DNA from: Malacoraja senta
Lineage: Eukaryota
Reading direction: 5' to 3'
Length of the DNA: 64,000 nucleotides
Assembly (NCBI GenBank): GCA_038087875.1
Contig: CM075992.1
Coordinates: 9,116,001 to 9,180,000 of the forward strand
Shown one piece after another: positions 1,143-57,496 of this stretch. Each line of letters opens with the position of its first letter. The first letter of the stretch is position 1. The notes under the pieces were generated by a model, which saw only the letters and a program-made list of their open reading frames with translations, did not search any database and had not been told where the DNA came from. The position numbers were made by a program, and so were the translations under genes.

Positions 1143-1362
1143 CTTCATAACGAGAGTGTCCTTAAAGTTGCTCATCAACTTATGATCTTTTATTCTACTT
1201 TTATTTATTTCGTTCACTAGCTGTTTTGTTCTTTCACATATCCCGTCTACACTAGAATCAGGTCCCACAAAACAGTTTGAGGGCTTGCCATTGAAGTCAA
1301 GTGTGGAATCTTCAATATCAGAGGTTGTCATGGCATCATCCATTAAGCTGCTAGATTCCTCT
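1143..1362 (-). CDS. SYCE2: SYCE2 internal coding exon (synaptonemal complex central element protein 2)
   Basis: Encodes ...DSSVDGICERTKQLVNEINKSRIKDHKLMSNFKDTLVMK, matching my recollection of the human SYCE2 core (SSLDSSIDILQKRAQELIENINKSRQKDHALMTNFRNSLKTK). Pyrimidine tract + CAG acceptor (ttcccttgcaacag|A) and AAG|gtaatt donor; 220 nt, phase 2 in and phase 0 out. No downstream exon recognised in the window. Confidence 0.9.
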
Positions 1363-2139: not shown

Positions 2140-4720
2140 GGCAGTTCAACACTCTTGAGTTTGGAAAGAAGTTAGAAAGCAGGACCTGGAGGGCGGTAAT
2201 CTCTGGATTACTTCCATTGCCGTGTGCTAGTGAAGGCAGAAATACAAGGATAAGGCAGAGGAATGTGTGGCTGAGAAGCTGGTGTGGGGGAGCAGCGGTT
2301 ATTGTTCTTAGATCATTGGCATCTCTTACAGGGCAGAAGTAATCTACAGGAGGCATGTGTTGAATCTGAACTGGAAGGGGCACCAATATTTTAGGAGGAA
2401 GATTTGTAGCGCTCCTCAGGAGAGTTTAGTTTAGAGATACATCACGGAACCAGGCCCTTCGGCCCGCCAAGTCTGTGCCGACCAGCGATCACCTGTCCAC
2501 TAGGACTATCCTACACCCTAGGGACAATTTACGGTTTACATCTTACAGTTTTTACCAAAGCCAATTAAACTAAAATCCTGTGCGTCTTTGTGGAGTGTGG
2601 GAGAAACCCCATGCGGTCACAGTGGAAACATATAAACTCCGTACACACAGCACCTGTAGTCAGGATCGAACCCGGGTCTCTGGTGTTGTAAGGTGGCAAC
2701 TCTCCCGCTGAGCCACTGTGCCGCCCTAAACTAGATTGGTAGGGGGATGGGTCCAAGGACAGAAAAGGGGAAGGTGAAAAGTTGTGGACAAGTACTGTAG
2801 TTAAAGAGAGCAAGTTTAGTACACAGGACAGCCAGGAGAAGGGCGAAGAGAAAGAGAAGACTGGAGGTTTAAACTGCATGTGTTTCAAGGCAAGAGACTT
2901 AACAGTTCAAGCAGACAAACTCAGGGTGTGGATTAGCTCAGGAGACTGAGATATTACAGCCATTACAGAAACATGGCTGCAAGAAGGGCAGATCTGACAG
3001 CTCAATGTTCCAGGGTATTTCAGAGGGAACTTAGTTCCAGGGGGAACTTACAGAATAATGAATGGCATAGATAGAGTGGATGTGGAAAGGGTGTTTCCAC
3101 TGGTAGGAGAGTCTAGGACCAGAGGTCACAGCCTCAGAATTAAAGGACGCTCTTTTAGAAAGGAGGTGAGGAGGAACTTTAGTCAGAGGGTAGTTAATCT
3201 GTGGAACTCATTGCCACATAGGTCTGTGGAGGCCAAGTCAATAGATATTTTTAAGGCAGAGATAGCCAAATTCTTGATTGGAACGTGTGTCAAGGGTTAT
3301 GGGGAGAAGGGATTAGGAGGCAGAGATCAGTCATGATTGAATGGCAGAATAGACTCGATGGGCCGAATGGCCTAATTCTACTCCTATAACTTGTGAACTT
3401 GGTATAGACAAAAGTACAAGTAAAGGGTATGAGTTTTTTTGATGAGGGGGAAACTTAACAACGGTGCTTAGAGAGGATATTCTTGGGGGTTCGTCCAGTT
3501 AGTATAGGTAGCATTTTGAAACAAGAAGGGGATGATCACTGCGATAGGACTATTATGTGCCTCCCTATATTCAGTGAGAATTAGTGGAGTTGATGTGCCA
3601 AGAGATCGCAGAGAGTTGCAACAATAATAGGGTAGTGTTAAGGGGAGATTTTAACTTCCCTAATATTGACTGGGTCACCCCCCCCCCCCCCACGCGAAGG
3701 GTTTGGATGGGGAGGAATTAGTCAAATATGTTTAAGATAGCTTCCTTGATAAATATATGGTGGCCCCCACTAGAGAGGGGCCCATCATGTATTGTGGACC
3801 TTTCCTCAGGTGGACAGTGGGCCTTCTCTCAGGGAAAGAGGTAGGGCAAGTGACTGAAGTGTCAGTGGGGGGATCACTTTGGGACCAGTGCCAATCATTT
3901 TTGTTTACTATAAGAAAGACATCGTTAAGCTGGAAAGAGTGCAAAGATTTGCAGGAATGTTGCCAGCACACAAGGACATGAGTTATAGGGCGAGTTTGAG
4001 CTGGCTAAGGCTTTATTCACTGGAGCATAGGAGACTGAGGCATGATCCTAGAGAGGTGTATAGAATCATGTGGGGCAGAGATAATGTGAATGTAGTCTTT
4101 TTCCTGGAGTAGGGGAATCAAGAACTAGAGGGTCATAAGGTTATACGGAATAGGAGTAGAATTAGACCATTCGGCCCATCAAGTCTACTCCGCCATTCAA
4201 TCATGGCTGATCTATCCCTCCCTCCTAACTCCATTCTCCTGCCTTCTCACCATAACCTCAAACACCTGTACTAATCAAGAATCTATCTATCTCTGCCTTA
4301 AAAATATCCACTCACTTGACCTCCACAGCCTTCTGTGGCAAAGAATTCCACAGATTCACCACCCACTGACTAAAGAAATGTTTCCTCATCTCCTTCCTAA
4401 AAGAACGTCCTTTAATTTTGAGGGCATAGGTTTCAGGTGAAGGCGGAAAGATTTAATAGGGAACTGAGGGGCAACTTTTTCACACAGAGGATAGTGGTAT
4501 ATGGAAGGAACCAGCAGCGGAATTGGTTGAGACAGGTACAATAACAACATTTAAAAGACTTGGACAAGTACATGGATAGGATAGGTATATGGATAGAAAA
4601 GGGTTGGAGGGATATCAGCCTAATGCAAGCAAATGGGACTATCTTAGATGGGCATCTAGGTCAGTATGCATGAGTGGGGCTGAAGAGCCTGATTCTGTAC
4701 TGTATTTCTCCATGACTCTA
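2140..4720 (+). mobile_element. Cluster of nested, degraded CR1 LINE fragments
   Basis: Translations such as ESRTRGHSLRIKGRSFRKEVRRNFSQRVVNLWNSLP, plus endonuclease remnants (ggagattttaacttccct = GDFNFP). Confidence 0.75.
2425..2731 (-). mobile_element. tRNA-derived V-SINE (HE1-like)
   Basis: Reverse complement of the 7252 copy: tRNA-like head with box B (ggttcgatcc) and ctaaac tail. Confidence 0.75.
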
Positions 4721-7560: not shown

Positions 7561-9696
7561 AATATGTTACCTGGTTAATTCTATCCATCAGTAGTGACAA
7601 ACTGCAGAGAAAGGATTTTTAACATGTATTCAAACACAGATGACATTCCATACAGGAATGATGCATAGGTTTTGGAGAGGGTAGAGAAGAGCTTTACCAG
7701 ACTGGGGCCTGGATTAGAGGGTATTAGCTCAAAAGAGAGCTTGGACAAATTTGGATTATTTTCTCTGGAGCGTCGGAAGTTGAGGGGGAGACCTGATAGA
7801 AGTCTATAAAATTTTGAGAGGCAAAGATAGGGTACAGTCAGAACCTTTCTCCAAGGGTGGAAATGTTAATACCTAAAGGGCATAACTTTAAGGTAAGAGG
7901 GGCAACCTTTAAAGGACGTGCAGCCCAAGTTTTTGTTTTACACAGGTGGGTGTCTGGAACGTGCTGCCAGGTCTGGTGGTGGAGGCAGCTATGTTGGTGA
8001 CGTTTAAGAAGCTTTTAGCTAGGCACAAAGAAGAAATATGGATCATGTGCAGGCAGAGATTAGTTTAACCTGGCATCAAGTTCAGCACGGATGCTGTGGG
8101 CCAAAGGGCCTGCTCCTGTGCTGTACTGTTCCAGCGATGGATAGCTGCAGTTGAAGGAGCTGCTGTGTGTTAGAAAATGGTGCTGCTGAAACATGAAGCA
8201 TGACATACGCAGAAAATGTTAAATCTCCAAATATCAGTAATATCTGTGTTCAATATTTAAATCATTGCCAAAGTCACACCAGCTTTTTCAATAGCGACAT
8301 GAATTGCATTTGGCTTAGTCTCCCAGACCTAAAACACCAATGGACATTTCCCCATTACTGCCCTTATTTATCTTTTATAACTAAATTGTCCATCCATCCT
8401 TTTTGGCCTTGCGTGCTTGAATACAAGATGTTTTGCTTTAACAAAATAATCTAATGTTCAGTTACTCCCAGCTGGCATTATTACACCCAAGTGCAAAATG
8501 TCATTGCTAACAAAATCATCACCAACATGTCATCTACCAACATGCTCCACTCAAAGCAGCAGATAAACCTCTTTAATAGTTATAACTGACATTAATGCTG
8601 AGAAATTCAATTGTCAATGCTGCTTTTTTCAGAATAAGGCAATTGAAAATATGTTTATTTCCCCCAAGTGAAATGCAATAACAACCTTTCCTGGAGCCAT
8701 AACTGCAAATGCCAGAACCTTGAACAAAAACAGTGCTGGCCACGCAGCCACTAGAAGGAATGGATAGACAATGTTTCGGGTCTCTCTCCTGCATTTGTTT
8801 CGAGTCATAAAATAGTGAAAGATCAACAATACAAAAGAAGGCCATTTAACTACCATGTCCGCGCTTTCAATAAAGATCTAATGGTTCTTAGCTATTAATC
8901 CCATCTTCCAACACTGGGTCTGTCGTCTTCCAGGTCACAGCTTTTCAAGTACACATCAATGTATTTTACAAATGGAATGAGAGTTTCTTGCCTCAATCCT
9001 TTTCAAGCAGTGAGTTTTAGACCACCCACCAACCTCTGGGTGAAAAGCTGTTTCCTTATCTCCCCTGTAATCAATCATCTACCAATTACTTTGAAATTCA
9101 TCACACTCCTGGTGGTTGTCACCTATACTCAGGGGATTGTGGTCCTCTTTTTTACAAGGCATCCTGAGTAACAAATGGGCTCTGTTTTTACAGACATTGA
9201 TAACGTAATTTTCTCCATTGATTGGAAAATACACAAACATCACTCAATATTGTACCATATGCTGTAACATTGTAGTGAATTGCACCAAAACCAGACGAGA
9301 CTGACAAGAAAGAACAATTAAGAAACGTGGAGAGAGATAGAAAAGTGGTAATTAAAGATAGACACAAAATGCTGGAGTAATTCAGCATCCCTGGAGAAAA
9401 GGAATACATAACATTTGTAGGAAGGAACTGCAGATGCTTGTTTAAACTGAAGATAGACACAAATGTTGGAGTAACTCAGCGGGGCAGGCAGCATCTCTGG
9501 AGAAAAGGAATGGGTGATGTTTCGGATCGAGACCCTTCTTCAGATTGAAAGTCACAGGAAAGGGAAACGAGAGATATAGACGATGATGTAGAAAGATATA
9601 GAACAAATTAATGAAAGTTTTGCAATAAAGCAACAATGATAAAGGAAACGGCTCATTATTAGCTGTAGAGAGGTGAGAACAAGAAGCTGGTGTGAC

Positions 9697-10440: not shown

Positions 10441-12088
10441 CCAGGTGGGGGAGGGATGGAGAGAGATGCAGGGGTTACTTGAAGTTAGAGAAATCAATAT
10501 TCATACCCCTGGGTTGGAAACTGCCCAAGCAAAATATGAGATGCTGTTCCTCCAATACGTGAATACGTGACATTTTGGGTCGAGACCCTTCCTCAGACTG
10601 AGATTCAGGAGAGGGAAACTAGCTCTGCCATTTATAGCAACGAATGCATGCATGTGTGTTGGACTTTAGTATTGAATAACACGAGTGGGTTGAGTGTTTA
10701 TAACATAGGGACGGCCTGTACTTTAACTTTAGCACCTCATAATTTTATGCATTTCTAATAAATCTGCCTCCAGTTTATCCAATCCTTCCTCATAGCTGAA
10801 AACTTCCAAACCTGCAATATTCATAATCTCTGCTGCACTTTCAGCAGTGCAATCACAACTTTCTTGTAATGTAGTAAGAAAACTATATGCTGTTCTCAAG
10901 ATGTGGTTTTGGTTGCAGCATAAACTTCCTGCACTTACGTTTATCTGCCGCATCTTTAGACTTTACTGATACAACTTGGAAACGCCGACCAGTGATCATC
11001 TCGTGCACTAACACTATCCTACATGCGAGGGACAATTTACAATTTGAAGCCGATTAACCTATAAACCTGTACGTCTTGGAAGTATGGGAGGAAACTGGAG
11101 CACCCGGTCTCAGGGAATGAACGAGACACCTAATGAAATATCCTCTGCCTTTTGTCAATATGGACACAAAGTGCTGGAGTAACTCAGCAGGTCAGACAGC
11201 ATCTTTGGAGAACATGGATAGGTGACATTTCGTGTCAAGATCCTTCTTTGGCTTATCCTCTGCCATATTTGATGGAACCCTCAGATGCACTTCCTCCCTC
11301 CTGCCCAGACAGAATATAGCCAGTGTTTCCGAAATCCGCATCTTGCACCTTACAGCGTCCACATCCAGCCCGTCACCATTTCTACCCTTTGGCCCACTAA
11401 GTCCACGCCGACCATCGATCACCCATTCACACTAATTAGGGTCTTAGAAACAGGCCCTTTGGGCCGAATTGTCCATGCTGACCAAGATGCCCAATCTACG
11501 CTAGTCCCAACTGCCCGCCTTTGGCCCATATCCTTCTAAACCTTTCCGATCCATGTACCTGTCTGAATGCCTTTTAAATGTTGTAGTACCTGCCTCAACT
11601 ACCTCCTCTAGCAGCTTATTCCATATAACACCAACTTCGGTGTGAGAAAGTTGCCCCAGGTTCCTATTAAATCTTTTCCTTCTCACCTTAAACCTCTGCC
11701 CTCTGGTTCTTGATTTGTCTACTTTGGGTAAAAAAGTCTGTGGATGCGCTCTATCTATGTCCCTCATGATTTCAGGGCTGCCAACTCTCACGCATTGAGC
11801 TTGAGAATCACGCATTTCGCCAAATTCTCATGTTCTCACGCTGATCACAGAATTTCTCACGCTCTGTCATGAGAAATTCTGTGATCAACAAGAATTTCAA
11901 AACAAATATCAACTGCATGGGCCGCGGGTGTTGGAGAGCGGGGCGGAGGGAGGGATGGAAGCAGAAGCAGCGGTGGGGACAGATGCGGACGGGGAGCTGG
12001 GGCTGGCGAGGGTTTGCCAGGCTGGCGAGTGTTTGCCGGGCTGTCGAGTGTTTGCCGGGATGGCGAGTCGCTCGCTGCAGCTCCGGCC

Positions 12089-12244
12089 ATGGATCAGCTT
12101 CAGTTCAAGAGTCCCGGGCCGTCTGAGGTGTCAGAAGCATTGCGCCGCTGCCGTGAGAGTCTCTGTGCCGAATTCGCCCTGGTGACCAGCATGGACCAGG
12201 CTGCGGCTCGGTGCATCCTGGAGGACAACCAGTGGCTGCTGGAA
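12089..12244 (+). pseudogene. TDP2: Captured TDP2 exon 1 (N-terminal UBA-like domain) with splice donor
   Basis: ccggccATGG start. RESLCAEFALVTSMDQAAARCILEDNQWLLE resembles recalled human TDP2 RRLLCVEFASVASCDAAVAQCFLAENDWEME, and is followed by GAA|gtaggt. No further TDP2 exons seen; lies inside the TIR element. Confidence 0.75.
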
Positions 12245-14485
12245 GTAGGTGCCAAGCACTGGGTAGAAGGGTGGAAGATAGTGGCCCTTCAAATGAGGGT
12301 GGTTGGAGAAAGCATCCTGCTTGCTTGCTAGATTTTCACTTACTGTAACTGCAGGAAAAATGTTAGGGGGAGTTCAGAATCAGGGATCACTCAGCTTAAG
12401 AATAAGGGGTTGGCTATTTAGGACTGAGATGAGGACAAACTTTCTTCACCCAGAGAGTTGTGAATCTGTGGAATTCTCTGCCACAGAAGGCAGTGGAAGT
12501 CAATTCACTGGATGTTTTCAGGAGAAAGTTACATTTAGCTCTTGGGGCAAGCGAAATCAAGGGATATGGGGAAAAAACAGGAAAGAGGTACTGATTTTAG
12601 ATGAACAGCCATGATCATATTGAATGGCAGTGCTGGCCCGAAGGGCCGAATGGCCTATTCCTGCACCTATTTTCTATGTTTCTATGCTTGAGTATATGGC
12701 AATAAAACTCGACCACTTGATTTTGAAGCATTCATGCTTGGTGGAGGTATAATGTAGTCATAGAGTGATACAGTGTGAAAACAGGCCCTTCGGCCCAACT
12801 TGCCCACACCCGCCAACATGTCCCAGCTACACTAATTGCTTTTGGTCCATATCCCTCCAAACCTGTCCTATCCATGTATCAGTCTAACTGTTTCTTAAAT
12901 GTTGGGATAGTCCCTGCCTCAACCACCTCCTCTGGCAGCTTATTCCATACACCCACCACCCTTTGTGTGGAAAAGGTTACCCCTTAAAAAGTTACCTCTT
13001 AAAAATACGTCAAACAAAAACCATTGAAATCATACTTCTACAATGCACTAAAACATGATTTTAATACATCAAATTTCAAAACGTCCCTACCACCACTCAG
13101 TTGCTCCACTCCCTCGCCGGGTACCCCCAATGCCAGTGATCAGTGATCGCTCAGCCTCGCCACTATCAAAAATGCTCCACGGCCCCTGGTTCAGACGGAG
13201 AGCACTGCCAGATGTGAGTTGAGAACTGAGGCCAGTTGTCTGTGATGTCTGGATCCCAATGCTCAGCGCTTCGTGTTTCAGAGTTGGCTAATTTTATTGA
13301 TTTGTTATTAGCCTGATTTGTAATTAATTGACAAAACCTTAATTTATGAATCCAGAATATCCAGGGGAATGGGATAAGTGTAATATTAAAATGACATGCA
13401 AGGTGTCAGGCTGTCTGTCACAACATACAGCCCCGATAACCCATTATTTCCTTCAGTTAAATATTGGGAAGGTGGCACTATTGTCATTTGCCACTCAACT
13501 ATTATGTTTGTTCACCTCACTGACTATTTCTAAACACCCCCCCCCCCAAATTCCTTTGACCGGTTGAATAGAAATGTCCCCAATCTCATTGTTTTATTAA
13601 TTGAACACGTAGATGAACATCCTCAAGGAGTGTAATCAGATGGAAACTGATTCAGATGCGATGTTTAAGAGCTTGTTCAAAGAAGGGGGATATTTTAAAG
13701 AAGTGACAGAGATACTTGCTGGGGAATGTGTGAGGAAGTTATTATTTGTCTTTAGTTTTAGCTTGAACCAGGACATCTGAAGATTCAAAGTTTAATATAG
13801 TAATTGTGCTGATACTGACTCCAACCAACCACGTAATGAATATCATCCATTCCGGAGGTTTTATTTTTCTGATGCCATTTAAACTTCACTTGGATTTCAA
13901 TCACTCCAATGTAAAAGTAATTGAGAATGGGGAGCATTGGAACAAAAATTTGCCCTCGGTACATATTAACTGTAATATAATAATGTATGCATGTTGGTAT
14001 GTGCAATCAAAACAAAGATCTTTTTTATGATTGTTGTGATGAATACCACAGAAAATATTATGTACTCTCAAGATCACATTTAATAGAATATTATTGCTTA
14101 AATATATAGTTATTGGACTTTGCATTTCGGAAATGTCCCAGCTGAGAGGAAGACAGCAAAATACTGAAAATATTGGGGGTGAAAATGACTTCAGGACAGT
14201 TTGTTAGGAAAATTAAGGAAATGGTAACAGAATACTTATACAGCTGAGTGAGTATAATTTTGTGGATGAGAAATTGTGTTCAACCAATTGATGACTTCTT
14301 TGACAAAGTAACTAGCATGTTAGATAACAAGGAAGCCAATGAATGTAGCAAATTTTGTTATACAAAATTTGGTCCGTGAAGTGCTCCATAAAAGATTACC
14401 GCATTAGATAAGCACCTGTGGATGTAATAGGTTAAGTCCAGGGGGTCAGATATGGGGCTTTATATGTGGGCCAGATATATTGTCA

Positions 14486-14750
14486 GTGCAGAGGGTCTAG
14501 GAGCAAGGCCAAGTGTGCATCCAGAGACAAGGTCTGGAATAGTACTAAGTGTGCAGTCAAAGCTGGGACAATGGGAGTGTTCAGCACTGGGAACCTAAGC
14601 AGGTAAGCAGCTATGATCAGGGTAGCATAGGAGGCCAGGTGTAAGGCTGGACTCAGGGTCAGGAATGAGAGATGGTATGCAACTGGAGTCCGGGTCAGGA
14701 GCAGTACCAGGTGTGCAGTGAGACCCAGGTTGGTCAACATGGGCCAAGTG
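14486..14750. repeat. Degenerate ~36-bp tandem repeat inside the TIR element
   Basis: Recurring ccaggtgtgca...gggtcaggagcagta units at 36-nt spacing; one minus frame reads PGSHCTPGTAPD/PDSSCIPSLIPD/PESSLTPGLLCY. Confidence 0.6.
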
Positions 14751-16337
14751 CTTGATTATAATCTGATTTCCATACATGAATACACTAAGATCATTCATGT
14801 GCTGCACCTGTTGATCAGAGCCTGGCTCTACTGTGGAATGTAATTAGGAATGTAATTTTATTCATAGCTAATCCAATTTAAAGCATAAATATTGCATTCA
14901 AGTGTAAGTTAAAAGACTCGCGACAGTACACACCAGATTGCACAATCTCAAGCTGAAAAATGCAAAAGCTCCGTACCAATGGGAGGAGGGAAACCACCCT
15001 CCCACACCCTCTCCCCCTCCCCCCATCCGGTCGCTACGCTCCCTCGGGCTTGGTCTCTCGCAATTTCTCACTCCCAACTCTCACCCAATGTTGGCAGCCC
15101 TGTGATTTTATACACCTATTTAAGATCATTTTCCACCCCCCATTTTGCCAAATGGGGCATCAGACTATAGCTGAGAGAGGTTGGGGGGAAGGAAGGGGGC
15201 AAGTTTGGGTAACCAAATCTTTTTTCAGAAACAATAAACAATAACATTCAATTTCAGATTGTGATAGATTTCCACTACACTGAATATCAGAAATAAACAG
15301 GTCATTAATTAGTAGGAAGGGACTGCAGATACTCATTTACACCAAAGATAGATACAAAATGCTGGAGTAACTCCGCGGGATAGGCAGCATCTCTGGATAG
15401 AAGGCATGGGTGACGTTTTGGGTTCCGAAGAAGGGTCTCGACCCGAAACATCACCCATTCCTTCTATCCAAAGATGCTGCCCGCTGAGTCACTCTCAGGT
15501 AATTAATTAATTATTTTTCATTGAGGTTTCACAAGACCACTGATCTTCATTACCTGTAACTCTAGGCTTGGGCAAATACATTGTAAATAGGATGAACCAA
15601 ACAATGTTCTCAGGGAAATTTGCCGCACCGAGGGCCCACCCCTGCCTTCTACAGTGTTTCTGTTATTAGTAGTAAATATATAAAATTAGAACCCAGGGAT
15701 AGCCAAATGTTTAGTGCATGTGCCTTAAGGTTATTTAAAAGTTAAAGCTCCTCTGCCACCAGTTGATGACCACTGTGTATCGCTGGCATCAAGGGCTGCC
15801 GTCGTGTTAATGACAGAAAATACTTCAGGTGCAACTCAAATGTGGACCAAGAACAAGCACTCATACAACTACTGTACTGCTAATAACCTACTTGTCAGGT
15901 CAACACTATCAGTACATAGAACTTGTGGTGGATAGACACAAAAAGCGGGACAGGCAGCATCTCTGGAGAAAAGGAATGGGTGACGTTTCGGTCGAGACCC
16001 ATCTTCAGACTGAGAGTCAGGGGAGAGGGAGACTAGATATATGAAGGAGTAAGGTGTGAAAAGGACAGATCAAAGTAGACGATGGTCAAGGAAATGTAGA
16101 ACGGTTCATTGTTAGCTGAGGGGAAGGTGACAACGGGGCATACAATCAGTAAAATTAATCAAGATGACAGTGAAACAGGTCGGAGAACGAGGGTGGGGGG
16201 GGGGGGGGTATGGAGAGAGAGGGAAAGTAAGGGTTACCTGAAGTTAGAGAAATCAATATTCATACTTATAGTAGTTTAATGCTACATCACCCCCCCCCTC
16301 CCCTCATAAAAAAGCGAACAATTCCAGGCTCACTCAC

Positions 16338-16444
16338 CTTAAATTGACCTCTTTGTATAGAGTCTTCCTGCAACCACTGGTTTGTGGCCTGTTTTCATCA
16401 ATGTTGCCCTTCTTTTGTTCACCATCATAATCTTTTTCAGCCAT
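16338..16444 (-). CDS. SYCE2: Probable upstream SYCE2 coding exon (MAEKDYDGEQKKGNIDENRPQTSGCRKTLYKEVNL-R)
   Basis: Acceptor tctcctgctttcag| at 16451/16450, ATG at 16444, donor AAG|gtgagt at 16338/16337. Ends in phase 2 (AG), which joins the leading A of the 1362 exon to give an in-frame Arg. An earlier in-frame exon cannot be excluded. Confidence 0.75.
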
Positions 16445-18360
16445 CTTGATCTGAAAGCAGGAGAGTTTAACAGCTTGCTTCCAATAAGAACGGGTGATTC
16501 ATTCGGGTTTCATCTTCACTGGTTTTCTCCTCAGCGCAAAGCACCATCTGATGCTGTGTTACAATACCATGGGATCCGACCACAATTTGGTGCGTCGCTC
16601 GAGTGCTAACTTTGTGATGTTCGTCAGCAAAGATTCTGTGAATTGCATGAACAGGAAACCCAAGTTCCACCCCCACCTCACACCCTTTGATGGCAGATAA
16701 TGAACTGAACATGTGGTTTCCATTGTCACTGTAGTTCAGTTGGATTCTGGTAGTATGTTCTTCCCTCAATATAAATTGCCACAATATAAATTGAATCCGC
16801 AGCACCTCAGATTTTCACACAAAGGGCGATGGGTGTATGGAACAAGCTGCCAGAAATGGTAGTTGAGGCAGGGACTATCCCAACGTTTAAGAAACAGTTA
16901 GGTACATGGATAGGACAGGCTTGGAGGGATATGGGCTAAACGCGGGCAGCCTCAAGTAATTCTACAACCTGATGCTGCTACAAGGTTTCCAGACAGGAAA
17001 ACAAGTCTCTCTCATCCATCAAACAAATGATTATTTTGAAACAGCCTCCCTCAAAGCCCAATGATGCAAATTGAATGTAGCTGGGGCATATTGGCCGGTG
17101 TGGGCAAGTTGGGCCGATGGGCCTGTTTCCACTATGATACAAACTGTTGGCCGTTTACGATGTAGCACCATAGCCATGGGGAAGGAAAAAGGAAGTGAAC
17201 ATTTTCCTGAATGTATTTCTACAGAACTACAATATAATATGGGTACAGAAGAACTGCAGATTCTGGAACCTTGCGCAAACCACAAGGTGCCGGAGGAACT
17301 TAGTAGGTCGGGCAGTATCTGCGGAGATTCTAGGAAAGGAATATACAATTTGCATTTGGTTTGTCTGTACAAGTTTGTAACCAACTCAGCCCTTTATGCA
17401 AGCTATCTGCATGCAAATTCCTGAATTATTTGGTATTCCCAAGCATTATTGATATCTGTGCAGCCATCCCTCAAAGCCCCAATGATGCAAATTGAATACG
17501 ACAACTGTGCACTTTTACTATTCAACCCCCTCCCCTCTCTCTTTCCTGTGCCCCATCAGCATGTGCACTCCTTTCTCCTTTACCCCTTCCCAGCCTTTTG
17601 TCTTCTTTGCATCACTGGCCTATCCACACATCAACCAGTTGAAAACATTCCTCACTTGTATTCACCTATCACTTGCCAGAGCTCGTCTTGCCCCAATCTC
17701 TCTTCCAGCTTTCTCCTCTCTACTACAATTTGTAGTACAAAAATGCTGAATAACTGAATGAGGTAGAGATGAAAATATAAGTAAATGGCAGCATCTCCGG
17801 GAAGGAAGTCAAGAGTGTTTTATTGTCATGTGTCCCAGACAGAACAAACAAATTCTTACTTGCTGCAGCACAACAGAATATGTAAACATAGCACACTGTA
17901 AACAATATGATAAACGAGAGAGAAAAAAAAAGTTCAGTGCATAAAAGAGGTGATTTGTTCAGGAGTCTCTAGCAGTGGGGAAGAAACTGTTCTTAAGTCT
18001 GGATGTCCAGGCTTTCAAGCTCTACTCACAGGTGGAGGAGAGAAGGGGAAATGGCGAGGTCAAATAATCAACAAAGTTAAAGATTGAATTTGTTAAATCA
18101 CTGGATTGGAATCTGAACACCTGAGCCAATGATCCGGAGGCAAGAGCTTCAATTACACCACGAAATATTAAATAAATATACAATAATAACTCTGATGCTT
18201 GATCACCAACCGAAATGCCAAGCATCCTTCTGCCTCCCCAGAGATGTTGCTCAACCCGCTGAGGTTCCTCAGCTGTTGGCTCTTTGTGCCAGTACCACAT
18301 CGTGTGTGGAGATCTTCCTTCATTCTCTGCCCCTGATGTGGCTCTAGACCACAGTAAAGT

Positions 18361-18699: not shown

Positions 18700-19360
18700 C
18701 CCAGGGCCGGACCACTCTGATTCTTTGGCCATGGTCGCCCACGCTTTGCCCCAGGCTCCCCTCCCTTCGCCCAATGCCCCCCGGTGTGTGGAGCTCACGT
18801 CTTTCCCTGGCACCAGGCCAATGTGGCGTCTCACCGTCGCTCCTGGGCCAAGGCATGGATGGCTCCCACCGCCGGCACCTCCCCGCCGCCCCCTCCCCCT
18901 TCCCCTTCCCCTCCCCCCCAGGTCCGTTGCTAAGGGCCGCGCCGACGTCAGACGGCCTCTCCCCCCCTCCCCGTGACGTCGGACAGCCTCTCCTCCCCCC
19001 CCCCCCCCATCGCCGTGACGTCAGACGCCGGGCACCCCGCGCTTTTCGCTGCATGCGGGAGGCCGAGGCCCGGACCAGACGGAGATGGACGGCAGGTTCC
19101 GCACCGCACCGCTCGAAGCCGCAGCCGCACCGGGGCGCTCCCTCAGATGGAGGGATGCTAAGGTACTTCACTGAACCGAATGACAGTGAGGGGAACACTG
19201 GGGGAAAGGGCCGCGTACGGGAACACGCGTCGGGCCGGCAGCGGTTGCCATGGGAACGCGGCGCCGGGCCTTCCCCGTGGTGGTGGGCTCGAAGGAGCTG
19301 CGGGGGGTCTGATGGAGCAGGAGGTGGGCTTCACCGGCTGTGTTGGGATGCCCTGATGTG
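18700..19360. promoter_or_regulatory. CpG island, probable SYCE2 (possibly bidirectional) promoter with CRE and RFX X-box motifs
   Basis: GC- and CpG-rich segment ~2.3 kb upstream of the SYCE2 ATG exon. Three GACGTC cores including a perfect TGACGTCA (19016-19023); X-box-like GTTGCCATGGGAAC (19244-19257). Confidence 0.65.
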
Positions 19361-24229: not shown

Positions 24230-25895
24230 TTATTTGAGAAATGGCTGGAGGTCTGTGACTAGTGGAGTTCTGCAGGGATCTTTGCTAGGATCTCTGTTTG
24301 CGATATATTTAAATGACATGAATGGAAATGGAGATGGGCTGTTTAGTAAGTTTCCAGACAATTCCCAAATTGGTGGAGTCGTGGGCAGCAAGGGAGGCTG
24401 TCAAAGTATACAGTGGGATAGCAACAGAAATGGGTATGGAAATGGCAGATGGAGTTTAATCTAAGCGAAAGTGAGGTGTTGTACTTTGGGAGGTTTTATG
24501 TAAGGGACAAATATAAAGGAAAACCACATAACAGCATTGATGTACAGCGGAATCTTGAGCTCCAAGTCCATAGCTCATTGAAAGTGGCAACACAAGCATT
24601 GAGAGTGGTACAGAAAGCATATAGTATGTTTGCCTCCATCGGTCAGGGCATTGAGTATAACAATCAGGAAGTCATGTTGCAGTTTTTAGGGCATTGGTTA
24701 GGCCACATTACAGGAGTGATGTGGGGCTTTGGAGAGGTTGCAGAAGAGGTTTACCAGAATGCTACCTGGATGAGAAGGTAATAGCTATAAGAAAAGGTTG
24801 GACAAAATGGATTGATTTCTTTGGAGCGTTGGAAGCTGAGGAGAGATCTGATAGAAATATATACAATTCTGGGGCATAGATATGGTAGACAGTTGTAATT
24901 TTTCCCCCAGGGTGGAAATGTCAAAGACAAGAGGGCATAGCTTTAAGGAGATGGGGCAAAGTTTAAGGGAGATGTGCGGCACAAGTCTTTTTAAAACTCA
25001 AAGCGAGGTGGGTGCCTGGAATGCACAGCCAGGTGTGGTGGTGGAGGCAGTTACAATAGTACCATTTAATAGACGTTTAGATAGGCACATGAATATTCAA
25101 GGAATGTTGGAATATGGATCACGTGCAGACGGAGGATATTAGTTATACTTGGCATCATGTGTAGGAAAGAACTGCAAATGCTGGTTTAAATCGAAGGTAG
25201 ACAGAAAATGCTGGAGTAACTCAGCAGAACAAGCAGAGAAGCAATGGGTGACGTTTCAGGTCGAGACCCTTCTTCAGACTGAGAGTCAGGGGAGAGGGAG
25301 ACTGGAGATATGAAGGGGTAAGGTGTGAAAAGGACAGATCAAAGCAGACAATGTCAAGAACGGCATCATATTCGATGCAGTCTTTTTGGATAGAAGGGCC
25401 TATTCCTGTGCTGCTCTGATCTATGTTCAATGTAAAGGGTGCAAAGAAGATTTACGAGGATGTTGCCAGGACTTGGGGGCCTGTGCTATAGGGAGAAGTT
25501 GAGCAGGCTAGGACTCTATTCCTTGGAGCGCAGGTTGATGAGGGGTGATCTTATAGAGGTGTACAAAATTAAGAGAGGAATAGATCGGGTAGATGCACAT
25601 TATCTCTGGCCTAGAGTAGGGGAATCAAGAACCAGAGGACCAGTTTAAGGTGAGGGGGAAAAGATTTAATAGGAACCAGAGGAGTAACTTTTTCAAAGGG
25701 TGGTGGGCATATGGAACAACCTGCCGGAGGAGGCAGGTGCTATACCAATGTTTAGGAAACATTTATACAGATACATGGATAGGATAAGTTTAGAGGAATA
25801 TGGACCAAACACAGGTAGGTGAGACTAGTTTAGATGGGACATGTTGGTCAGCATGGGCAAGATAAACCGAAGGACCTGTTTCCACGTTCTATGAC
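24230..25895 (+). mobile_element. Degraded CR1 LINE 3' fragments with a nested Penelope-derived piece
   Basis: WRSVTSGVLQGSLLGSLF..., RRFTRMLPGL...RGDLIEVYK translations with many frameshifts. Confidence 0.8.
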
Positions 25896-33009: not shown

Positions 33010-33848
33010 CTCTCTTCAGGTAGGTCCCAACCTGAAACATTGCCCACCCGTGTTATCCAGAGATGCTGCCTGACTTGCTGAATTACCTGCATCATAACAA
33101 ATTTTCCTTGCCTCTGAAGGACACAAAGTGCTGGAGTAACTCGGCGGGTCAGGCAGCATCTCTGGAGAACATGGATAGGTGGCGTTTCTGGTCGGGACCC
33201 TTCTTTAGATTCCTTGCCTTTCTCTAATCCTTTACCATTTAACTTATCTTCAACTGGAAATATTTTCTCCTATTTTGCTTATGAAAGCACTTCATGATCC
33301 TTATTAAATCTCCCGATGTCCTTTGCGTTCTCAGCATGACGCAATACTGCAGAATCACTTCAAACAACCGTTAATTTCCGTTTGATTTTTCCTTTTGGGA
33401 AGCAATAGAACAAGCAATAGTGGAACCAGAGGAAAAATAATTATAAAAGTCAAACGGAAGTGAGTATTATTATTGATCAGTAAAGACATCCCAGAATCAG
33501 AGCGTCAAGAGAGAAGGTTGCTAAGGAACTGACAACAAAGTCATGTGTGATGCGGCTCTTTCCTTTGCGCATCAGCAGATACCTTGGGTAGATTCTAATT
33601 TTGAGTCTTTTAGCTGGTGTGATTGGAAGTGGCAGGAAGAGGCGTTAAAACATAATGTTCAGCATCCTGTAAACAGGGGAGGTTAAGTCATTTCCTCCCC
33701 TCCCCCTCTTCACCCCTGTAGTCCAAACAAGTGACAAAAGGACTAAGCTTCATTGTGATGCCCCTGGTCCATCAAGCTGCCAGCACTCACTGTTCAGGTG
33801 TGCACATGAAGGTTTGTGTCAACTGTAAGCCAACTATCACCTGTGGCA

Positions 33849-35555
33849 ATGGAGGACGAGACGGCGCCAGCACCGGTGGAAGGTGAGGAGGAGACAACAG
33901 CACCTGACGAAGGGGCAGCTCCTGAGGAACCAGCAAAGGAGGACGCAGAACCAGAGGCAGAACCAGAGGCCGAACCAGAGGCCGAAGCAGAGGCCGAACC
34001 AGAGGCCGAACCAGAGGCAGAACCAGAGGCAGAACCAGAGGCAGAACCAGAGGCAGCACCAGAGGCAGAACCAGAGGCAGCACCAGAGGAAGAACCAGAG
34101 GAGGCTCCAGCAGAACCAGAGGCAGCACCAGAAGAAACAGCACGCGCAGAATCACCAAAAGATGAGGCAGCAGCTGTGGAATCACCGAAAGCGGCAACAC
34201 CTACAGAATCACCAAAAGCGGTGGCAACTCCTCCGGGATCACCCAAGGCAGAATCACCGCAAAAGGAGGCCACGCCTGCAGCGTCACCGAAAAAGGCCAC
34301 GCCAGCAGAGTCACCGAAAAAGGAGGCCACGCCTGCAGAGTCACCGAAAAAGGTGGCCACACCTGCAGCGTCACCTAAAGAGACAGGAACACGTGCAGAG
34401 TCACCGCAAGAACTAACACGTGCAGAGTCACCAAAAGAAGCAACGCGTGCAGAGACACCAGAGGAAGCGGCGGCGCGTGCTGAGTCACCAAAAGAGGCAC
34501 CGACAGAAGAGGCAGCTCGTGCAGGGTCACCAAAAGAGGAGAAAGCGCCAGAGGAAGCAGCAAAAGAGGAGAAAGCGCCAGAGGAAACAGCAAAAGAGGA
34601 GAAAGCGCCAGAGGAAGCAGCAAAAGGGGAAGAGGAGCAAACTTGTCAAAAACCAGACAAGCCACCAGGAGAGAGCACTGAAGAGAAAGCAAAGGCAGCA
34701 GATGAGGCCAAAGAAGATAAAGCAGCAGCAGAAGGAGGCACCTGTGCCAAACCCAAACCGGAAGAGGGCACTGGTGAAAAAGGAGCCGCTGATGATAAAG
34801 CAGCAGCAGCAGCAGCAGCAGAAGGAGGCACCTGTGCCAAACCTAAACCAGAAGAGAGCACTGGTGAAAAAGGAGGCACAGATGATAAAGCAGCAGCAGC
34901 AGCAGCAGGAGGAGGAGGCACCTGTGCCAAGCCTAAACCGGAAGAGAGCACCGGTGAAAAAGGAGGCAAAGATGATAAAGCAGCAGCAGCAGCAGCAGGA
35001 GCCCCCTGCAGAAAATCTAAACCAGAAGAGAGCGCTGGTGAAAAACCAAAACCAGCAGAAGGTATCTGTGGAAAATCAGCAAAAGATAGCGCTGATACAA
35101 AATCAAAGGAGGCAGAAACAAAACAAACAGAAGAGAGTGACAAAGCAAAGCCAACAAAAGTATGCGTTCCTTGTGCTAAAGCAGCAGCAGCTGTGGGTCC
35201 TGGCTGTAAATTCAACCCACCAGTAGATAGCCCCTCCAACAATGCTGAGTTGGCACCAGTCAGCTCCTCTACAAACAAAGATGTTACTCCTTGCACAAAA
35301 CCAAAAGAGGCAGAACCCTGTGGCTGTAAATTCAAATCACCATTAGAAGCCACTAAAACCTCTGAAACATCAGTTCCAACCTCTGCAAGATCAAAATCGA
35401 GCAAATGCTGGGGAAGTGATCAGCGAACAGAGATCTGTGGTTGTGGAAGGCCAAAGCCAGCTGGAGCCAAAACCTGTGGAAGTCCACCCAAAGTCATCTG
35501 TGGCTGTAAAGACCCCAAAACAGGAGGCAAAACCTCTGGGAAATCAAAGCAATAA
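33849..35555 (+). CDS. Single-exon 568-aa low-complexity protein: (EPEA)n, SPK/SPKK repeats, Lys/Cys-rich C-terminal repeats; no recognisable homologue
   Basis: 1.7-kb uninterrupted ORF with strong Kozak context (gcaATGG) and an upstream in-frame TGA (33807). Acceptor tgttcag| at 33797; codon-preserving repeat units; no TE hallmarks; followed by TE-poor 3'UTR-like DNA with several AATAAA (e.g. ~37172, ~37271). Confidence 0.75.
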   Translation: MEDETAPAPVEGEEETTAPDEGAAPEEPAKEDAEPEAEPEAEPEAEAEAEPEAEPEAEPEAEPEAEPEAAPEAEPEAAPEEEPEEAPAEPEAAPEETARAESPKDEAAAVESPKAATPTESPKAVATPPGSPKAESPQKEATPAASPKKATPAESPKKEATPAESPKKVATPAASPKETGTRAESPQELTRAESPKEATRAETPEEAAARAESPKEAPTEEAARAGSPKEEKAPEEAAKEEKAPEETAKEEKAPEEAAKGEEEQTCQKPDKPPGESTEEKAKAADEAKEDKAAAEGGTCAKPKPEEGTGEKGAADDKAAAAAAAEGGTCAKPKPEESTGEKGGTDDKAAAAAAGGGGTCAKPKPEESTGEKGGKDDKAAAAAAGAPCRKSKPEESAGEKPKPAEGICGKSAKDSADTKSKEAETKQTEESDKAKPTKVCVPCAKAAAAVGPGCKFNPPVDSPSNNAELAPVSSSTNKDVTPCTKPKEAEPCGCKFKSPLEATKTSETSVPTSARSKSSKCWGSDQRTEICGCGRPKPAGAKTCGSPPKVICGCKDPKTGGKTSGKSKQ

Positions 35556-38851: not shown

Positions 38852-39029
38852 TGTTGTGTATTTGGATGCTTGGAACAGACTTTAATAAGGCTTGGACACG
38901 GGAGTAAACTAACAAGCTTCTTTATTCCAGGACGCCACCTTGAGACTCCCCCGCGCATGCGTACTTGCACCACATCACAAGACATCACATATACTAATTA
39001 CATATGCTAATTATATCACATACCTAACA
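38852..39029 (-). repeat. 3' LTR
   Basis: Direct repeat of 42981-43158, adjacent to the PPT. Confidence 0.95.
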
Positions 39030-39703
39030 CTCCTCCCCCTTTAACTTGGAGGCAGGTAATACCATTTCTATTACATACCTAACACTCCTCCCCCTTTAAC
39101 TTGGAGGCAGGTAACACCATTTCTATTACACCGCACTCCACTTTTAACTCAATTTCACCTGCATGGTATATGCTCTTTATCTACATATCATTGATAATAC
39201 ACTGTTGCACATTGGTATTATTACTTAAACCAAATACATTACACCATGCTTTATGTGTTATCATTTTCTGGTTCATGTATTTGCTTTGTTTTCCTCTTTG
39301 TAGGTGGGATCTGACCCATGGCTGCAAGTTTTCGTTTTCTAGCAGCTTCCTCTGTTCAATTTCCATTCTCTGCTTATTTATCTGCTCTTGTTGTTTCATG
39401 AGATTCTGCAATGCATACCATTTGTCCATTGCTCAGTGAAGGAGGCTCCATGCTGGACTATAGTGAAGTGTCCTAATCGCAATCGGTCCTGCATACTTTT
39501 GTCTTGACCGACAAGCCTCTCTTCTTTAGACTTTTCTATTAGCAGCTTTCTACTCATTGTCACACATTTGTCTAACCTTTCTTTGTATCATTTAAGCCTT
39601 TTCTGTTGTTCATCTATTTGTCTTCTTAAGTCACCTTTCTGGTCTTCATCAAGAAGTAGGATCTATATTGTCTTTGCAATACAATACTGGCTTTGATTTG
39701 TGC

Positions 39704-40930
39704 TCAGTTTAGTTTTCTTGCTTCATAAGGAAGGTAGTGAGAGTGCACTACAATTGTTGTATAATTCAGTTTGAGGAAGTCTTTCCTATATCGTTTAAGC
39801 CTTTGGTATCGTTTCAGCCTTTTCTGTTGTTCATTTATTGGTCCACTTAAGTCACATCTCTGGTTCTTCATCACGAAGTAAGATCTATATTGTCTTTGCA
39901 ATACAACAGTGGCTTTGATTTGTGCTCTGTATAGTTTTCTTGTTTTATAAGCACGGTAGTGAGATTGCACTACAACTGCTGTATAATTCAGTTTGAGGAA
40001 GTCTTTCCTATATCGTTTAAGCCTTTTGTATCGTTTCAGCCTTTTCTGTTGTGCCTCTATTTGTCTTCTTAAGTCTTTCCTATACCAACTCATACGGAGT
40101 ACTGACTGAACTTTTACAGTAGCTCTCTTTTGCTTAACCCACTGCCTAATCACCATACTCTTGTAGGCAGCCTGAATGGTAATAGTTGCATCCCTCATTG
40201 ACTGATATTGCACAAACTGGGAACGCCCTATTTTGCATGCTTTGTACCATCTCTGGATCGAAATGACTGCTTGTTGCATAGCTCTGTAACGTACCCTTAA
40301 TCGGTAACCACGGTATGCAGCTTGCAGAATGACTACAGCCACCTTTTGCATCAAGAAATGCTTTCTTGTAATGCACATCCTTATGAATGACTTAATATGG
40401 CGTGCTGCCTTGATTTTCTCAAACAATACTCTGGTTTTGATCCCGCGGTATAACGCCTGAATACAAACCACTGCTTTTCTCAAACTATTATAATGTCTCA
40501 CTTGGACATTTCTTATCTGGCATGCTCTGTATCGTTGCTGTACCGCAATGGCAGACCAGCGTAGTTTCTTGAAATACTGACGCTGTTTATGCATCTGATA
40601 ATAAGTCTGTATGACCTTGGCAGATTTGTGCATGCACCGCAATTGCTTTCGAACAAGCATTCCTCGGTAGGCAGCCTGAAGCAGCACAACGCTGCTGCGT
40701 ACCTTCATGTAAGTTTTGCGATCACTTTCCATTTGAAGGTGTGCCCTATAATGGGTTTGTACTATTATAGCTGCCAATCTCATTGCCTTGTATTGACAGT
40801 ATACTCTGTGCATTCTAAATGCTGCTTGTATTACCATTGCTGCCTTCTGTTTGTTCCGGATCTCTCTCCATAGCTTCATACCCCTGAATTCAGCTTGAAT
40901 AGCTAGGGTTGCCCTCTGGATGGCAATGTC
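39704..40930 (-). CDS. ASPM: Captured ASPM IQ-repeat segment (open frame, ~400 aa)
   Basis: Serial IQ motifs (IQAEFRG, IQAAFRM, LQAAYRG, IQALYRG). IQRWYKACKIGRSQFVQYQSMRDATITIQAAY...VLQRQYRSYFVMKNQR is colinear with recalled human ASPM [32 protein letters not shown]...VLQNHYRAFLSAKHQR. This is a fragment, not the parental gene. Confidence 0.85.
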   Translation of the reverse strand, partial: DIAIQRATLAIQAEFRGMKLWREIRNKQKAAMVIQAAFRMHRVYCQYKAMRLAAIIVQTHYRAHLQMESDRKTYMKVRSSVVLLQAAYRGMLVRKQLRCMHKSAKVIQTYYQMHKQRQYFKKLRWSAIAVQQRYRACQIRNVQVRHYNSLRKAVVCIQALYRGIKTRVLFEKIKAARHIKSFIRMCITRKHFLMQKVAVVILQAAYRGYRLRVRYRAMQQAVISIQRWYKACKIGRSQFVQYQSMRDATITIQAAYKSMVIRQWVKQKRATVKVQSVLRMSWYRKDLRRQIEAQQKRLKRYKRLKRYRKDFLKLNYTAVVVQSHYRAYKTRKLYRAQIKATVVLQRQYRSYFVMKNQRCDLSGPINEQQKRLKRYQRLKRYRKDFLKLNYTTIVVHSHYLPYEARKLN

Positions 40931-41504
40931 CCTTTGCATTTGACTTCTGTCCTTTTGCACTTGACCTTTGTCTCTTTGCACTTGACCTTTTTTCTTTTGC
41001 ACTTGACCTTTGCACTTGACCTTTGTCCCTTTGCACTTGATATTTGTCCTTTTGCACTTGACCTTTGTCCTTTTGTACTTGACTTTTGTCCTTTTGCACT
41101 TGACCTTTGTCCTTTTGCACTTGACCTTTGTCCTTTTGCACTTGACCTTTGTCCTTTTGCACTTGACTTTTGTCACTTTGCACTTGACTTTTGTCCTTTG
41201 AGGTACTACCTGCACTCTTTAGTTCAGGCTCCTTGCCTCTGGATGCCCTTGGAGGTTTTGGTGAGAAATGAGCCATTAATGCCTCCTTACACTCCTTGTA
41301 CATTTTATCCGTGGGCTTTGCTGGCCGCAGCAACATATGTAAGGTGTGATAATCGTCTCTTCCTAAGACTAATATGAACCATGCTCTCTTCTTCTCCTCT
41401 GCAGTGATATCAATGGAAATGAACGAAACCAAGACTTCAGTCCATTTCTCAAAATTGCACCCAGAATCTAACTGGGGCAACTTTCCTACCATTTGAATAG
41501 CCAT
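40890..41504 (-). CDS. Truncated Gypsy gag N-terminal domain followed by (KDKGQVQ)n repeats
   Basis: MAIQMVGKLPQLD...ITAEEKKRAWFILVLGRDDYHTLHMLLRPAKPTDKMYKECKEALMAHFSPKP resembles the N-terminus of fish Gypsy gag (EEKKRA.LL...G...Y..L..L..PAKP..K.Y......L..H..PKP). Confidence 0.75.
   Translation of the reverse strand: MAIQMVGKLPQLDSGCNFEKWTEVLVSFISIDITAEEKKRAWFILVLGRDDYHTLHMLLRPAKPTDKMYKECKEALMAHFSPKPPRASRGKEPELKSAGSTSKDKSQVQSDKSQVQKDKGQVQKDKGQVQKDKGQVQKDKSQVQKDKGQVQKDKYQVQRDKGQVQRSSAKEKRSSAKRQRSSAKGQKSNAKGHCHPEGNPSYSS
40930..41200. repeat. 21-bp tandem array (TTGCACTTGACCTTTGTCCTT)n with one 13-bp short unit near 40997-41010
   Basis: Directly visible; about 13 units. Confidence 0.95.
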
Positions 41505-42965
41505 GCTACCTGTTGCTATTCAGGTGCACTATATTCTGTTCTCTCACTGTGTGAAAAAACCAACTGCGGCAATCTCCTGTACAGACAAAACACTGATTAC
41601 CCCAAGATGAGAAAACACAAATCTCCTGTACAGACAAAACACTGACTTCTCCAGGATAAGAAAATACAGTTCTGTATTAATTAGCTTTAGAAAAAAATCA
41701 CTGTCTATTACTTAATCTTATAATAGATTTATACTAATAACCCACATTTCATGTTAATAGCCCAACTAGAACATTTTAAACCATATTCCTTCAGAATGCA
41801 TTACAGGGCTTTTATTGCGACGGATTTCACCGGTCCAGCTTTTATTCTGATGGATTTCACCGCTCCAGCTTGTCGGCCTGTGAACTCTGGTGCATCCTCG
41901 ACCTCTCGAGCTGTCCCCACCGGTACCTTTGCTGCTGCTTTTGCTGGCTCTCCTCGGGCCTCACCGTTACTTTTAAACTCTGTCTCGGATTCTCCGGACC
42001 TCCGATGCTGCTGCTGGCTCAGCCGTTGCTGTTGCCTCCGCTGGCTCGCTGCCAAGTCGACTCCCGCTGCCCCGCTGACTTGCCTGCTGTCTCCCGTGGA
42101 CATCCTGTGGAAGGTAAGTTGCTGCTGCCGGTCCCCGCTGCTCCAAGCGTTGGGACTGTGCCCCGCCGTCGGGGGCTGGCTACGCCCTGTGCCCCGCTTC
42201 TCTCTCTCGTGGTCGGCTTTCTCCACTCTCGGCCTTCTCCCACGACCGGGGTTTCTCCACTCTCGGCCGTCTCCCGCGACCGGGCTTTCTCCACTCTCGA
42301 CCTTCTCCCGCGACCGGGCTTTCTCCGCTTTCTTCCCCGACCGGGCTGAATCTGCTCCCGACCGGGCTGAAGTGCTTGAGTGCTGTGTCCTGCTTCTCTT
42401 GCGCGGACCCACTCTTCGCTTGGGGCCGGACTTCCTCTCACGTCCGGGCTTTCCCCGCTCTCGACCGTCTCTTGCGACCGGGCTTTCTCGGCTTCTCTCG
42501 CGGGCCTGTCCGCTTTTCCACTCACGGTCGGGCTGACTCTGCTCCCGACCGGGCTTTCTCTGCTTTCTCCCCCGGGCTGACTGTTCCCGGCCGGGCTGAA
42601 GACTCAGCTTCTGTCGGTGGCTTCTCTGGACCTGTCCGTGGCCTTCACGGTACGAGGCCTTCATCCGACGTCTGTGGCTGCTGCTTGGGCCTGGCTGTGG
42701 GCTGCACAGCCCTGGATACATTCCAGGTAAGTTGACACCGTCGCTCCTAGCTTCCAGCTGTGCTCGGTGACCCTTACTGCCTTGCTTGTCTTCACTGCAC
42801 TCTTCCCGTTCCGACCTTTTTTTTCTTTTTGGCGCCAATTCAAAACCATTTGCCGCCAAATCTTTTTGCTTGGTGCTGTTCCACTTTGTTTTCAAATACA
42901 ACCTCTATTTTTAACTTGTTTTCATTTTTCTTGGCTGTCCTTGTTCTTATCTTCTTCGTTCTTTT

Positions 42966-42978
42966 ATCCTCGTCGCCA
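42966..42978 (-). other. Primer-binding site complementary to the 3' end of tRNA-Ser(GCU)
   Basis: TGGCGACGAGGAT, 2 nt inside the 5' LTR; complementary to the recalled tRNA-Ser(GCU) end ...AUCCUCGUCGCCA. Confidence 0.75.
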
Positions 42979-42980
42979 AT

Positions 42981-43158
42981 TGTTGTGTATTTGGATGCTT
43001 GGAACAGACTTTAATAAGGCTCGGACACGGGAGTAAACTAACAAGCTTCTTTATTCCAGGACGCCACCTTGAGACTCCCCCGCACATGCGTACTTGCACC
43101 ACATCACAAGACATCACATATACTAATTACATATGCTAATTATATCACATACCTAACA
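42981..43158 (-). repeat. 5' LTR
   Basis: Direct repeat of 38852-39029, adjacent to the PBS; contains AATAAA on the minus strand. Confidence 0.95.

Positions 43159-57130: not shown

Positions 57131-57496
<366 letters not shown>

Follow-up and report, generated by a model that had tools for sequence, protein, structure and literature searches.

The SYCE2 intron and the ends of the element

The window analysed here, a 64,000-nucleotide stretch of the Malacoraja senta genome (GenBank assembly GCA_038087875.1, contig CM075992.1, positions 9,116,001 to 9,180,000), contains exons of the meiotic gene SYCE2 on its minus strand and, at 11773-15102, a DNA transposon enclosing the first coding exon of the DNA-repair gene TDP2. 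SYCE2 is identified by an exon at 1143-1362 that matches human SYCE2 (E 1.6e-7); a second exon at 16338-16452 joins it in phase, and one X15 contig (contig 24) of the sequencing data begins exactly at 16338, its other 385 letters lying elsewhere. As read from the sequence, the element is antisense within the intron of about 15 kb between these two minus-strand exons, where the initial annotation of this DNA had also placed it. A CpG island at 18700-19300 (GC 71%, observed/expected CpG ratio, CpG o/e, 0.79) is probably the SYCE2 promoter region. The host site and the ends of the element, with terminal inverted repeats (TIRs) and a target-site duplication (TSD), comprise the following features.

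1143..1362, minus strand: SYCE2 coding exon, downstream of the host intron (human SYCE2 match)
11446..11772, resuming at about 15109-15130, minus strand: host CR1 3′ fragment split by the element (CR1 alignment)
11767..11772, no strand: left TSD, TGATTT (end and flank comparison, CR1 restoration)
11773..11920, plus strand: left transposon end with TIR (11773-11785), TCTC[AG][CT] repeats and a hairpin (motif counts, likeness to metagenome contig ends)
11842-11859 and 11870-11887: 18-bp hairpin arms within the left end
14991..15102, minus strand: right transposon end with subterminal repeats and TIR (15090-15102) (sequence; depth drop after the bin ending at 15143)
15103..15108, no strand: right TSD, TGATTT (end and flank comparison, CR1 restoration)
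16338..16452, minus strand: probable first SYCE2 coding exon, upstream of the host intron (phase; start of the X15 contig)

The 13-bp TIR CAGGGCTGCCAAC at the left end has its exact reverse complement at the right end, and TGATTT stands immediately outside both. The duplication is 6 bp long: compared over 8 bp the flanks are not identical, and the canonical 8-bp TSD of hAT elements is not present. Under a uniform base model, the chance of a comparable TIR pair with a 6-bp direct repeat, less than 5 kb apart in 64 kb, is roughly 1e-3. When the element and exactly 6 bp were excised in silico, the flanks rejoined as CR1 with a single reading frame, and other CR1 copies in the window aligned to them over the join, three of the 11 BLAST matches spanning it (25546-25882, 4042-4132 and 7802-7916). 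Per unit length, the motif TCTC[AG][CT] is about 20 times as frequent in either end as in the interior or in the remainder of the window (5 in 148 nt of the left end and 3 in 112 nt of the right end, versus 1.6 per kb elsewhere), and we take these subterminal repeats to be transposase-binding repeats. The perfect TIRs, the TGATTT duplication and the cleanly split CR1 fragment described in the initial annotation are thus all borne out by the ends, the flanks and the scripted excision. Both ends of one TIR element flank non-transposon sequence within 100-5000 bp, and the ends and the restored CR1 indicate that the TSD derives from a real insertion. On sequence grounds the feature is genuine, and by every property open to test here it is a Pack-TIR, a TIR element with host DNA between its ends.

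Most hAT elements generate 8-bp duplications (PMC12730594, PMC3014272), and a 6-bp TSD had initially been regarded as atypical for hAT-like ends. This objection falls away because hAT6 is a described 6-bp group, comprising the hAT families with 6-bp duplications within the Blackjack lineage (PMC12730594, citing Kapitonov and Jurka 2007). The CAGGG ends and the 13-bp TIR fit the hAT terminal motif YARNG (PMC3014272), and this copy has the 6-bp TSD of hAT6; the element may be termed hAT6-like, a placement made from its ends and TSD. It shares with hAT6 the duplication length and the short hAT-type ends, as far as the published description of that group goes, but differs in having no transposase. 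The ends could instead derive from another group with 6-bp duplications (unclassified, IS3EU or Polinton-derived), which would leave the account of capture otherwise unchanged. The element has no transposase by which to classify it, and the predominance of 8-bp duplications among hAT elements also speaks for such an origin; but its ends are short and fit YARNG, and they match neither the TAYGG..CCRTA ends and TIR over 30 bp of IS3EU (PMC12730594) nor the long TIR of Polintons (PMC3014272), and we consider a different group unlikely.

Scanning metagenome contigs for the left-end pattern yielded four loci (L001-L004), three of them 75-80% like the first 64-90 bases of the element; the pattern did not occur in genome contigs of viruses and prokaryotes. 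In L004 the right end is degenerate and 5 of 6 flank bases match; this locus sits among kinase-like exons that look vertebrate by eye. L002 has a similar left end without a duplication. Related ends, with no TDP2 cargo, occur in L001 (start 221, minus strand), L003 (709, plus strand) and L004 (1936, plus strand), in apparently fish-like contigs, and the end family apparently reaches beyond skates. No transposase partner was found in L001-L004.

The TDP2 cargo

The interior of the element reads as the 5′ part of a host gene running from just upstream of its coding sequence into its first intron, and includes the following features.

11921..11954, plus strand: probable TDP2 5′ leader of about 34 nt with a GC box at 11940, the sole upstream host DNA carried (junction placed by the L001 match)
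11955..12244, plus strand: TDP2 coding exon 1, with ATGs at 11955 and 12089 and the first two-thirds of the UBA-like domain (PF14555, TDP2 protein alignments)
12000..12068, plus strand: 19-bp tandem expansion, 3.6 units (repeat scan, version comparison)
12245..12250, plus strand: splice donor GTAGGT (sequence, X1 depth)
12245..14990, plus strand: intron-like non-coding cargo (first 84 nt common to three versions)
12350..12686, plus strand: CR1 3′ fragment within the cargo (CR1 similarity)
12756..13003, minus strand: second CR1 3′ fragment within the cargo (CR1 similarity; junction bridged by another organism's contig)

The 52 codons at 12089-12244 match the human TDP2 UBA domain (6q00, E 6.6e-5) and the TDP2 proteins of Leucoraja erinacea (at 78%) and Rhinoraja longicauda (at 72%). 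Full-length TDP2 proteins are known in three skates, that of Amblyraja radiata falling in the same cluster as the other two, which at the protein level places a parental gene elsewhere. TDP2 similarity stops exactly at the donor beginning at 12245, and most of the X1 run depth carries A at 12248, the canonical donor form. Because the UBA match covers positions 2-30 of the 43 of PF14555 here, versus 2-39 in full-length TDP2 proteins, the domain is evidently cut, with about two-thirds carried. Two of three skate TDP2 models begin at the ATG equivalent to 11955 and have 12089 as their second ATG, while the Leucoraja model starts at the equivalent of 12089.

Protein collections contain four more versions of the exon frame, all diverged (P0002, P0005, P0011 and P0012). 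All four have a shortened linker that is absent from the three host TDP2 proteins; three continue into the same intron, sharing the first 84 nt of the intron-like cargo, and P0005 spans the junction from transposon to exon. The frame from the first ATG is open in all of them, whereas the 19-bp expansion, which they lack, throws it out in this copy alone.

At the left junction, 11898-11920 matches L001 at 19 of 23 positions, and none of 2000 shuffles matched equally well; transposon DNA would therefore reach about 11920, and the host DNA ahead of the first ATG would amount to about 34 nt. This leader has one GC box at 11940, and the exon has a GC content of 64% and a CpG o/e of 0.74. What had been taken for a GC-rich upstream stretch is actually coding exon, two of the three skate models beginning upstream at 11955, and the proposal of a mobile promoter is not supported by a cargo that begins so close to the first ATG and whose GC-rich part is coding.

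The central proposal of the initial annotation, that a TIR DNA transposon carries TDP2 exon 1 together with its donor and intron-like DNA through capture at the DNA level, agrees with the alignments and the donor boundary. Nearby TDP2 exons would have contradicted it; TBLASTN of the window with three full-length TDP2 proteins detected none, the sole other match under E 0.01 being an L1 endonuclease frame at 47.4 kb. Exon 2 is absent, and a donor and intron-like DNA are present, unlike in a processed retrocopy; similarity that ends at a GT donor, with three other versions reading into the same intron, points to DNA-level capture. No transposase or Pfam family was recognised in the 14 other frames tested, and the search for Rfam matches gave none. 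The second CR1 piece is likely part of the family, since a contig of another organism bridges its junction with unique DNA. Within the cargo, the frame at 14248-14379 looks by eye like a piece of CR1 reverse transcriptase in decay and has no Pfam match. A second captured gene at 13613-13777 was considered and rejected, its only match being P0010, a frame that corresponds to this same part of the interior and has no Pfam assignment.

Copy number, and probable decay and spread among skates

Depth and contig structure were examined in sequencing runs. Among the 23 runs listed, 14 large ones (8 organism codes) contain 45-53% of the sampled words, and four of the 23 were aligned to 11250-16550 at 88% likeness. 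These four are X1 and X13, both of genomic scale, and X15 and X18, which are RNA only by conjecture, as none of the listed runs is recorded as RNA. Depth is summed contig depth, taken over 15 interior bins, with 4 CR1 bins left out, and 3 single-copy flank bins; joints refer to the best-supported 15 of the 4,495 considered, some joints being uncounted for X1 and X13. X1 has no substitutions relative to the unique flanks in three contigs and so probably represents the species of the window, perhaps even the source of its sequence; X13, 3-5% different there, is independent.

In X1 the summed depth is 157,000-400,000 over the interior bins versus 30-44 over the flank bins (median ratio about 6,100), and in X13 it is 31,000-95,000 versus 8-19 (about 4,700); the lowest-to-highest ratios are 3,600 and 1,700. 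The two bins of the TDP2 exon are as deep as the remaining bins of the element, single exon positions are covered by 60-85 distinct contigs in both X1 and X13, and immediately beyond the right end the first bin drops to a depth of 1,302 and 302. Between the ends the profile is roughly flat. With terminal bins no deeper than the interior, no larger family free of the cargo is visible at 88% likeness. One X1 contig links a SINE-like (short interspersed element-like) flank to position 11773 exactly, an alternative left flank. The best-supported joints include no head-to-tail joint and no large internal deletion, which together with the flat profile speaks for copies that are dispersed, mostly full-length and without exception cargo-bearing. 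No joint from 12244 and no empty-site joint is among the same 15, which is uninformative either way; contigs show neither transcript level nor strand. X1 also contains a minor form without 65 bases near the right end (14991-15057, depth 1,147), perhaps a subfamily.

The element is likely a member of a dispersed, high-copy family, roughly of the order of 10^3, in several skate species; only this order is given because overlapping short contigs probably inflate summed depth 2-3-fold. The many-copy reading draws on the high depth, the alternative left flank and the five exon versions, a second TSD pair not having been read. Alternatively, this could be a single or low-copy Pack-TIR formed by gap filling in an element already resident here, the depth having another source. 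Most animal Pack-TIRs are of that type (PMC8277862), the 64-kb window contains no second copy, and depth is an indirect measure; but exon bins thousands-fold deep, with many distinct contigs at single positions in two data sets, a profile without a larger cargo-free family and several diverged exon versions make a low-copy element highly improbable. P0002 gave 0 confirmed among 406 and 31 pattern matches in viral and prokaryote contig collections, and a search of representative proteins returned P0011 and one bacterial-like chance match (P0013) at low sensitivity, missing the TDP2 orthologues.

The divergence between this copy and consensus-like contigs is about 2-5% (mean 3.1% over six X18 pieces). 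Since this is similar to or above half the flank distance between X1 and X13, the family had probably started to spread by the time those species diverged. CpG transitions fit 7 of the 19 amino-acid variants explicable by a single base in the four other exon versions, where 4-10% would be expected (P 8e-6 to 2e-3, depending on the weight given to transitions; 2 of 21 variants are not explicable by a single base). This enrichment suggests germline methylation of the copies, which are now probably methylated and decaying.

We consider it probable that the element belongs to a dispersed, non-autonomous, hAT6-like family of high copy number, whose transposase is encoded elsewhere and whose copies are now probably methylated and decaying. 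Several points weigh against this interpretation. Summed contig depth, with its probable inflation, is not a copy number, and the data revealed no further complete copy bounded by two ends and a TSD of its own. A length of 6 bp for the duplication is known from this copy and from the degenerate case L004 (5 of 6 bases, in a fish-like contig), L002 having no duplication, and no transposase partner was found. The cargo at 12330-14990 is putative TDP2 intron, and three of the exon versions, P0002, P0011 and P0012, may represent genuine TDP2 loci in other skates, a tree of 7 short rows being star-like and its grouping of the copies unsupported (59/41). The CpG test is built on proteins and on the codon context of this copy, and the exon here still has a CpG o/e of 0.74.

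Precedents, history and possible function

A survey of 100 animal genomes reported 370 Pack-TIRs, 208 of them in hAT elements, with a median cargo of 224 bp and four multicopy cases (1.4%), the example having about three copies (Tan et al. 2021, PMC8277862). The skate element resembles these in having host DNA between TIR ends, a TSD, the commonest carrier type and DNA-level capture of exon plus intron, but differs in a cargo of about 3 kb and a family that likely numbers thousands, although the supplements of that survey may list larger cases. Its filter demanded a unique best parental match, so that families like this one could escape detection. In scale, the closest vertebrate precedent among the sources cited here is the bat Helitron HelibatN3, which carries the promoter and first exon of NUBPL, with a portion of its intron 1, in about a thousand copies (PMC4224331). 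In both cases the 5′ end of a host gene, exon 1 and partial intron 1, is highly amplified in a vertebrate; Helitrons, however, are rolling-circle elements without TIR or TSD, and HelibatN3 carries a promoter, whereas the skate element is of the cut-and-paste type and carries almost no upstream DNA. A skate genome paper discusses TcMar expansions, and its main text does not contain hAT as a whole word (PMC12361510); PMC6004678 and PMC12001565 contribute nothing decisive. No published account of this element was found in the openly searchable literature, a scope that leaves Repbase, Dfam and subscription journals outside. The hAT transposases are not known to form phosphotyrosine links; a connection of TDP2 chemistry with transposition was rejected on this point and on the partial UBA domain carried.

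Plant Pack-MULEs resemble the skate element in being non-autonomous TIR elements that carry 5′ gene fragments rich in GC. They differ in host and in having long ends and 9-10-bp TSDs, and although 36% of rice Pack-MULEs are multicopy, most have few copies per capture (PMC8277862).

We infer the capture route, the partner enzyme and the silencing in the history proposed here. A single capture, by gap repair or template switching, would have replaced a hAT-type interior with genomic DNA that extended from a point about 34 nt upstream of the first TDP2 ATG into intron 1. The short ends with their subterminal repeats may have been enough for a transposase encoded elsewhere to mobilise the element in trans, and the cargo-bearing form would have become the main family with these ends, reaching about 10^3 copies in a skate ancestor, its copies later being methylated and decaying neutrally. 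The present copy would have inserted into the CR1 remnant of the SYCE2 intron and would be spliced out with that intron. If thousands of copies are dispersed, one in the intron of a meiotic gene needs no special explanation, and an antisense intronic copy would be the expected remainder of chance and of selection against sense donors.

The element could instead be a working, mobile first-exon cassette, in which the CpG-rich exon starts transcription and the donor splices to downstream exons, giving chimeric RNAs that here would be antisense to SYCE2. The GC box, the GC and CpG content of the exon, the intact donor and the reading frame that the four other versions keep open from their first ATG are compatible with such activity, and transcribed Pack-TIRs (PMC8277862) and bat Helitrons (PMC4224331) are precedents for it. 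Little host DNA lies upstream, however, the copies show CpG-type decay, the first-ATG frame is broken in this copy and, more weakly, no fused protein occurred among the 17 and 15 candidates of two protein searches; a working cassette is in our judgement improbable. It is likewise doubtful that the TDP2 exon caused the success of the family or acts on the host, whether as an anti-silencing shield or through small or chimeric RNAs that regulate germline TDP2. Were it so, this would be a vertebrate, cut-and-paste counterpart of the epigenetic conflict described after gene capture in maize (10.1101/777037); in maize the elements had no copy-number gain, which tempers the idea.

If the copy number holds, a cut-and-paste transposon has amplified a vertebrate DNA-repair exon 2-3 orders of magnitude beyond reported animal Pack-TIRs in several skate species, and surveys that require a unique parent miss the most successful captures. 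One cargo would then stand in thousands of replicate contexts, in which captured first exons could be tested as aids to transposition, as starts of chimeric transcripts or as a means by which silencing is drawn onto the parent gene. Such copies can also confuse TDP2 annotation and read mapping in skates. Its likely amplification sets the element apart from captures known as single cases, and a function beyond selfish spread is unsupported.

Elsewhere in the window, a 581-aa plus-strand open frame at 33810-35555 has acidic, proline/alanine-rich tandem repeats and no Pfam match, and a frame at 57131-57499, also without a Pfam match, has one hydrophobic segment, typical of an exon of a small membrane protein. 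An L1-like region at 43733-49400 has an ORF1-like part on the plus strand (48302-49400, weak PF02994) and endonuclease and reverse transcriptase frames on the minus strand, a switch that is possibly a 5′ inversion. At 38852-43158, direct repeats of 178 bp, which are 99% alike with a spacing of 4129, stand on either side of a 504-aa minus-strand frame rich in IQ motifs (PF00612, E 2e-22), which is ASPM-like by eye and whose only matches in PDB are myosin V IQ motifs; with repetitive frames that have no Pfam matches also present, this region looks like a young long terminal repeat-type element carrying a second captured host exon.

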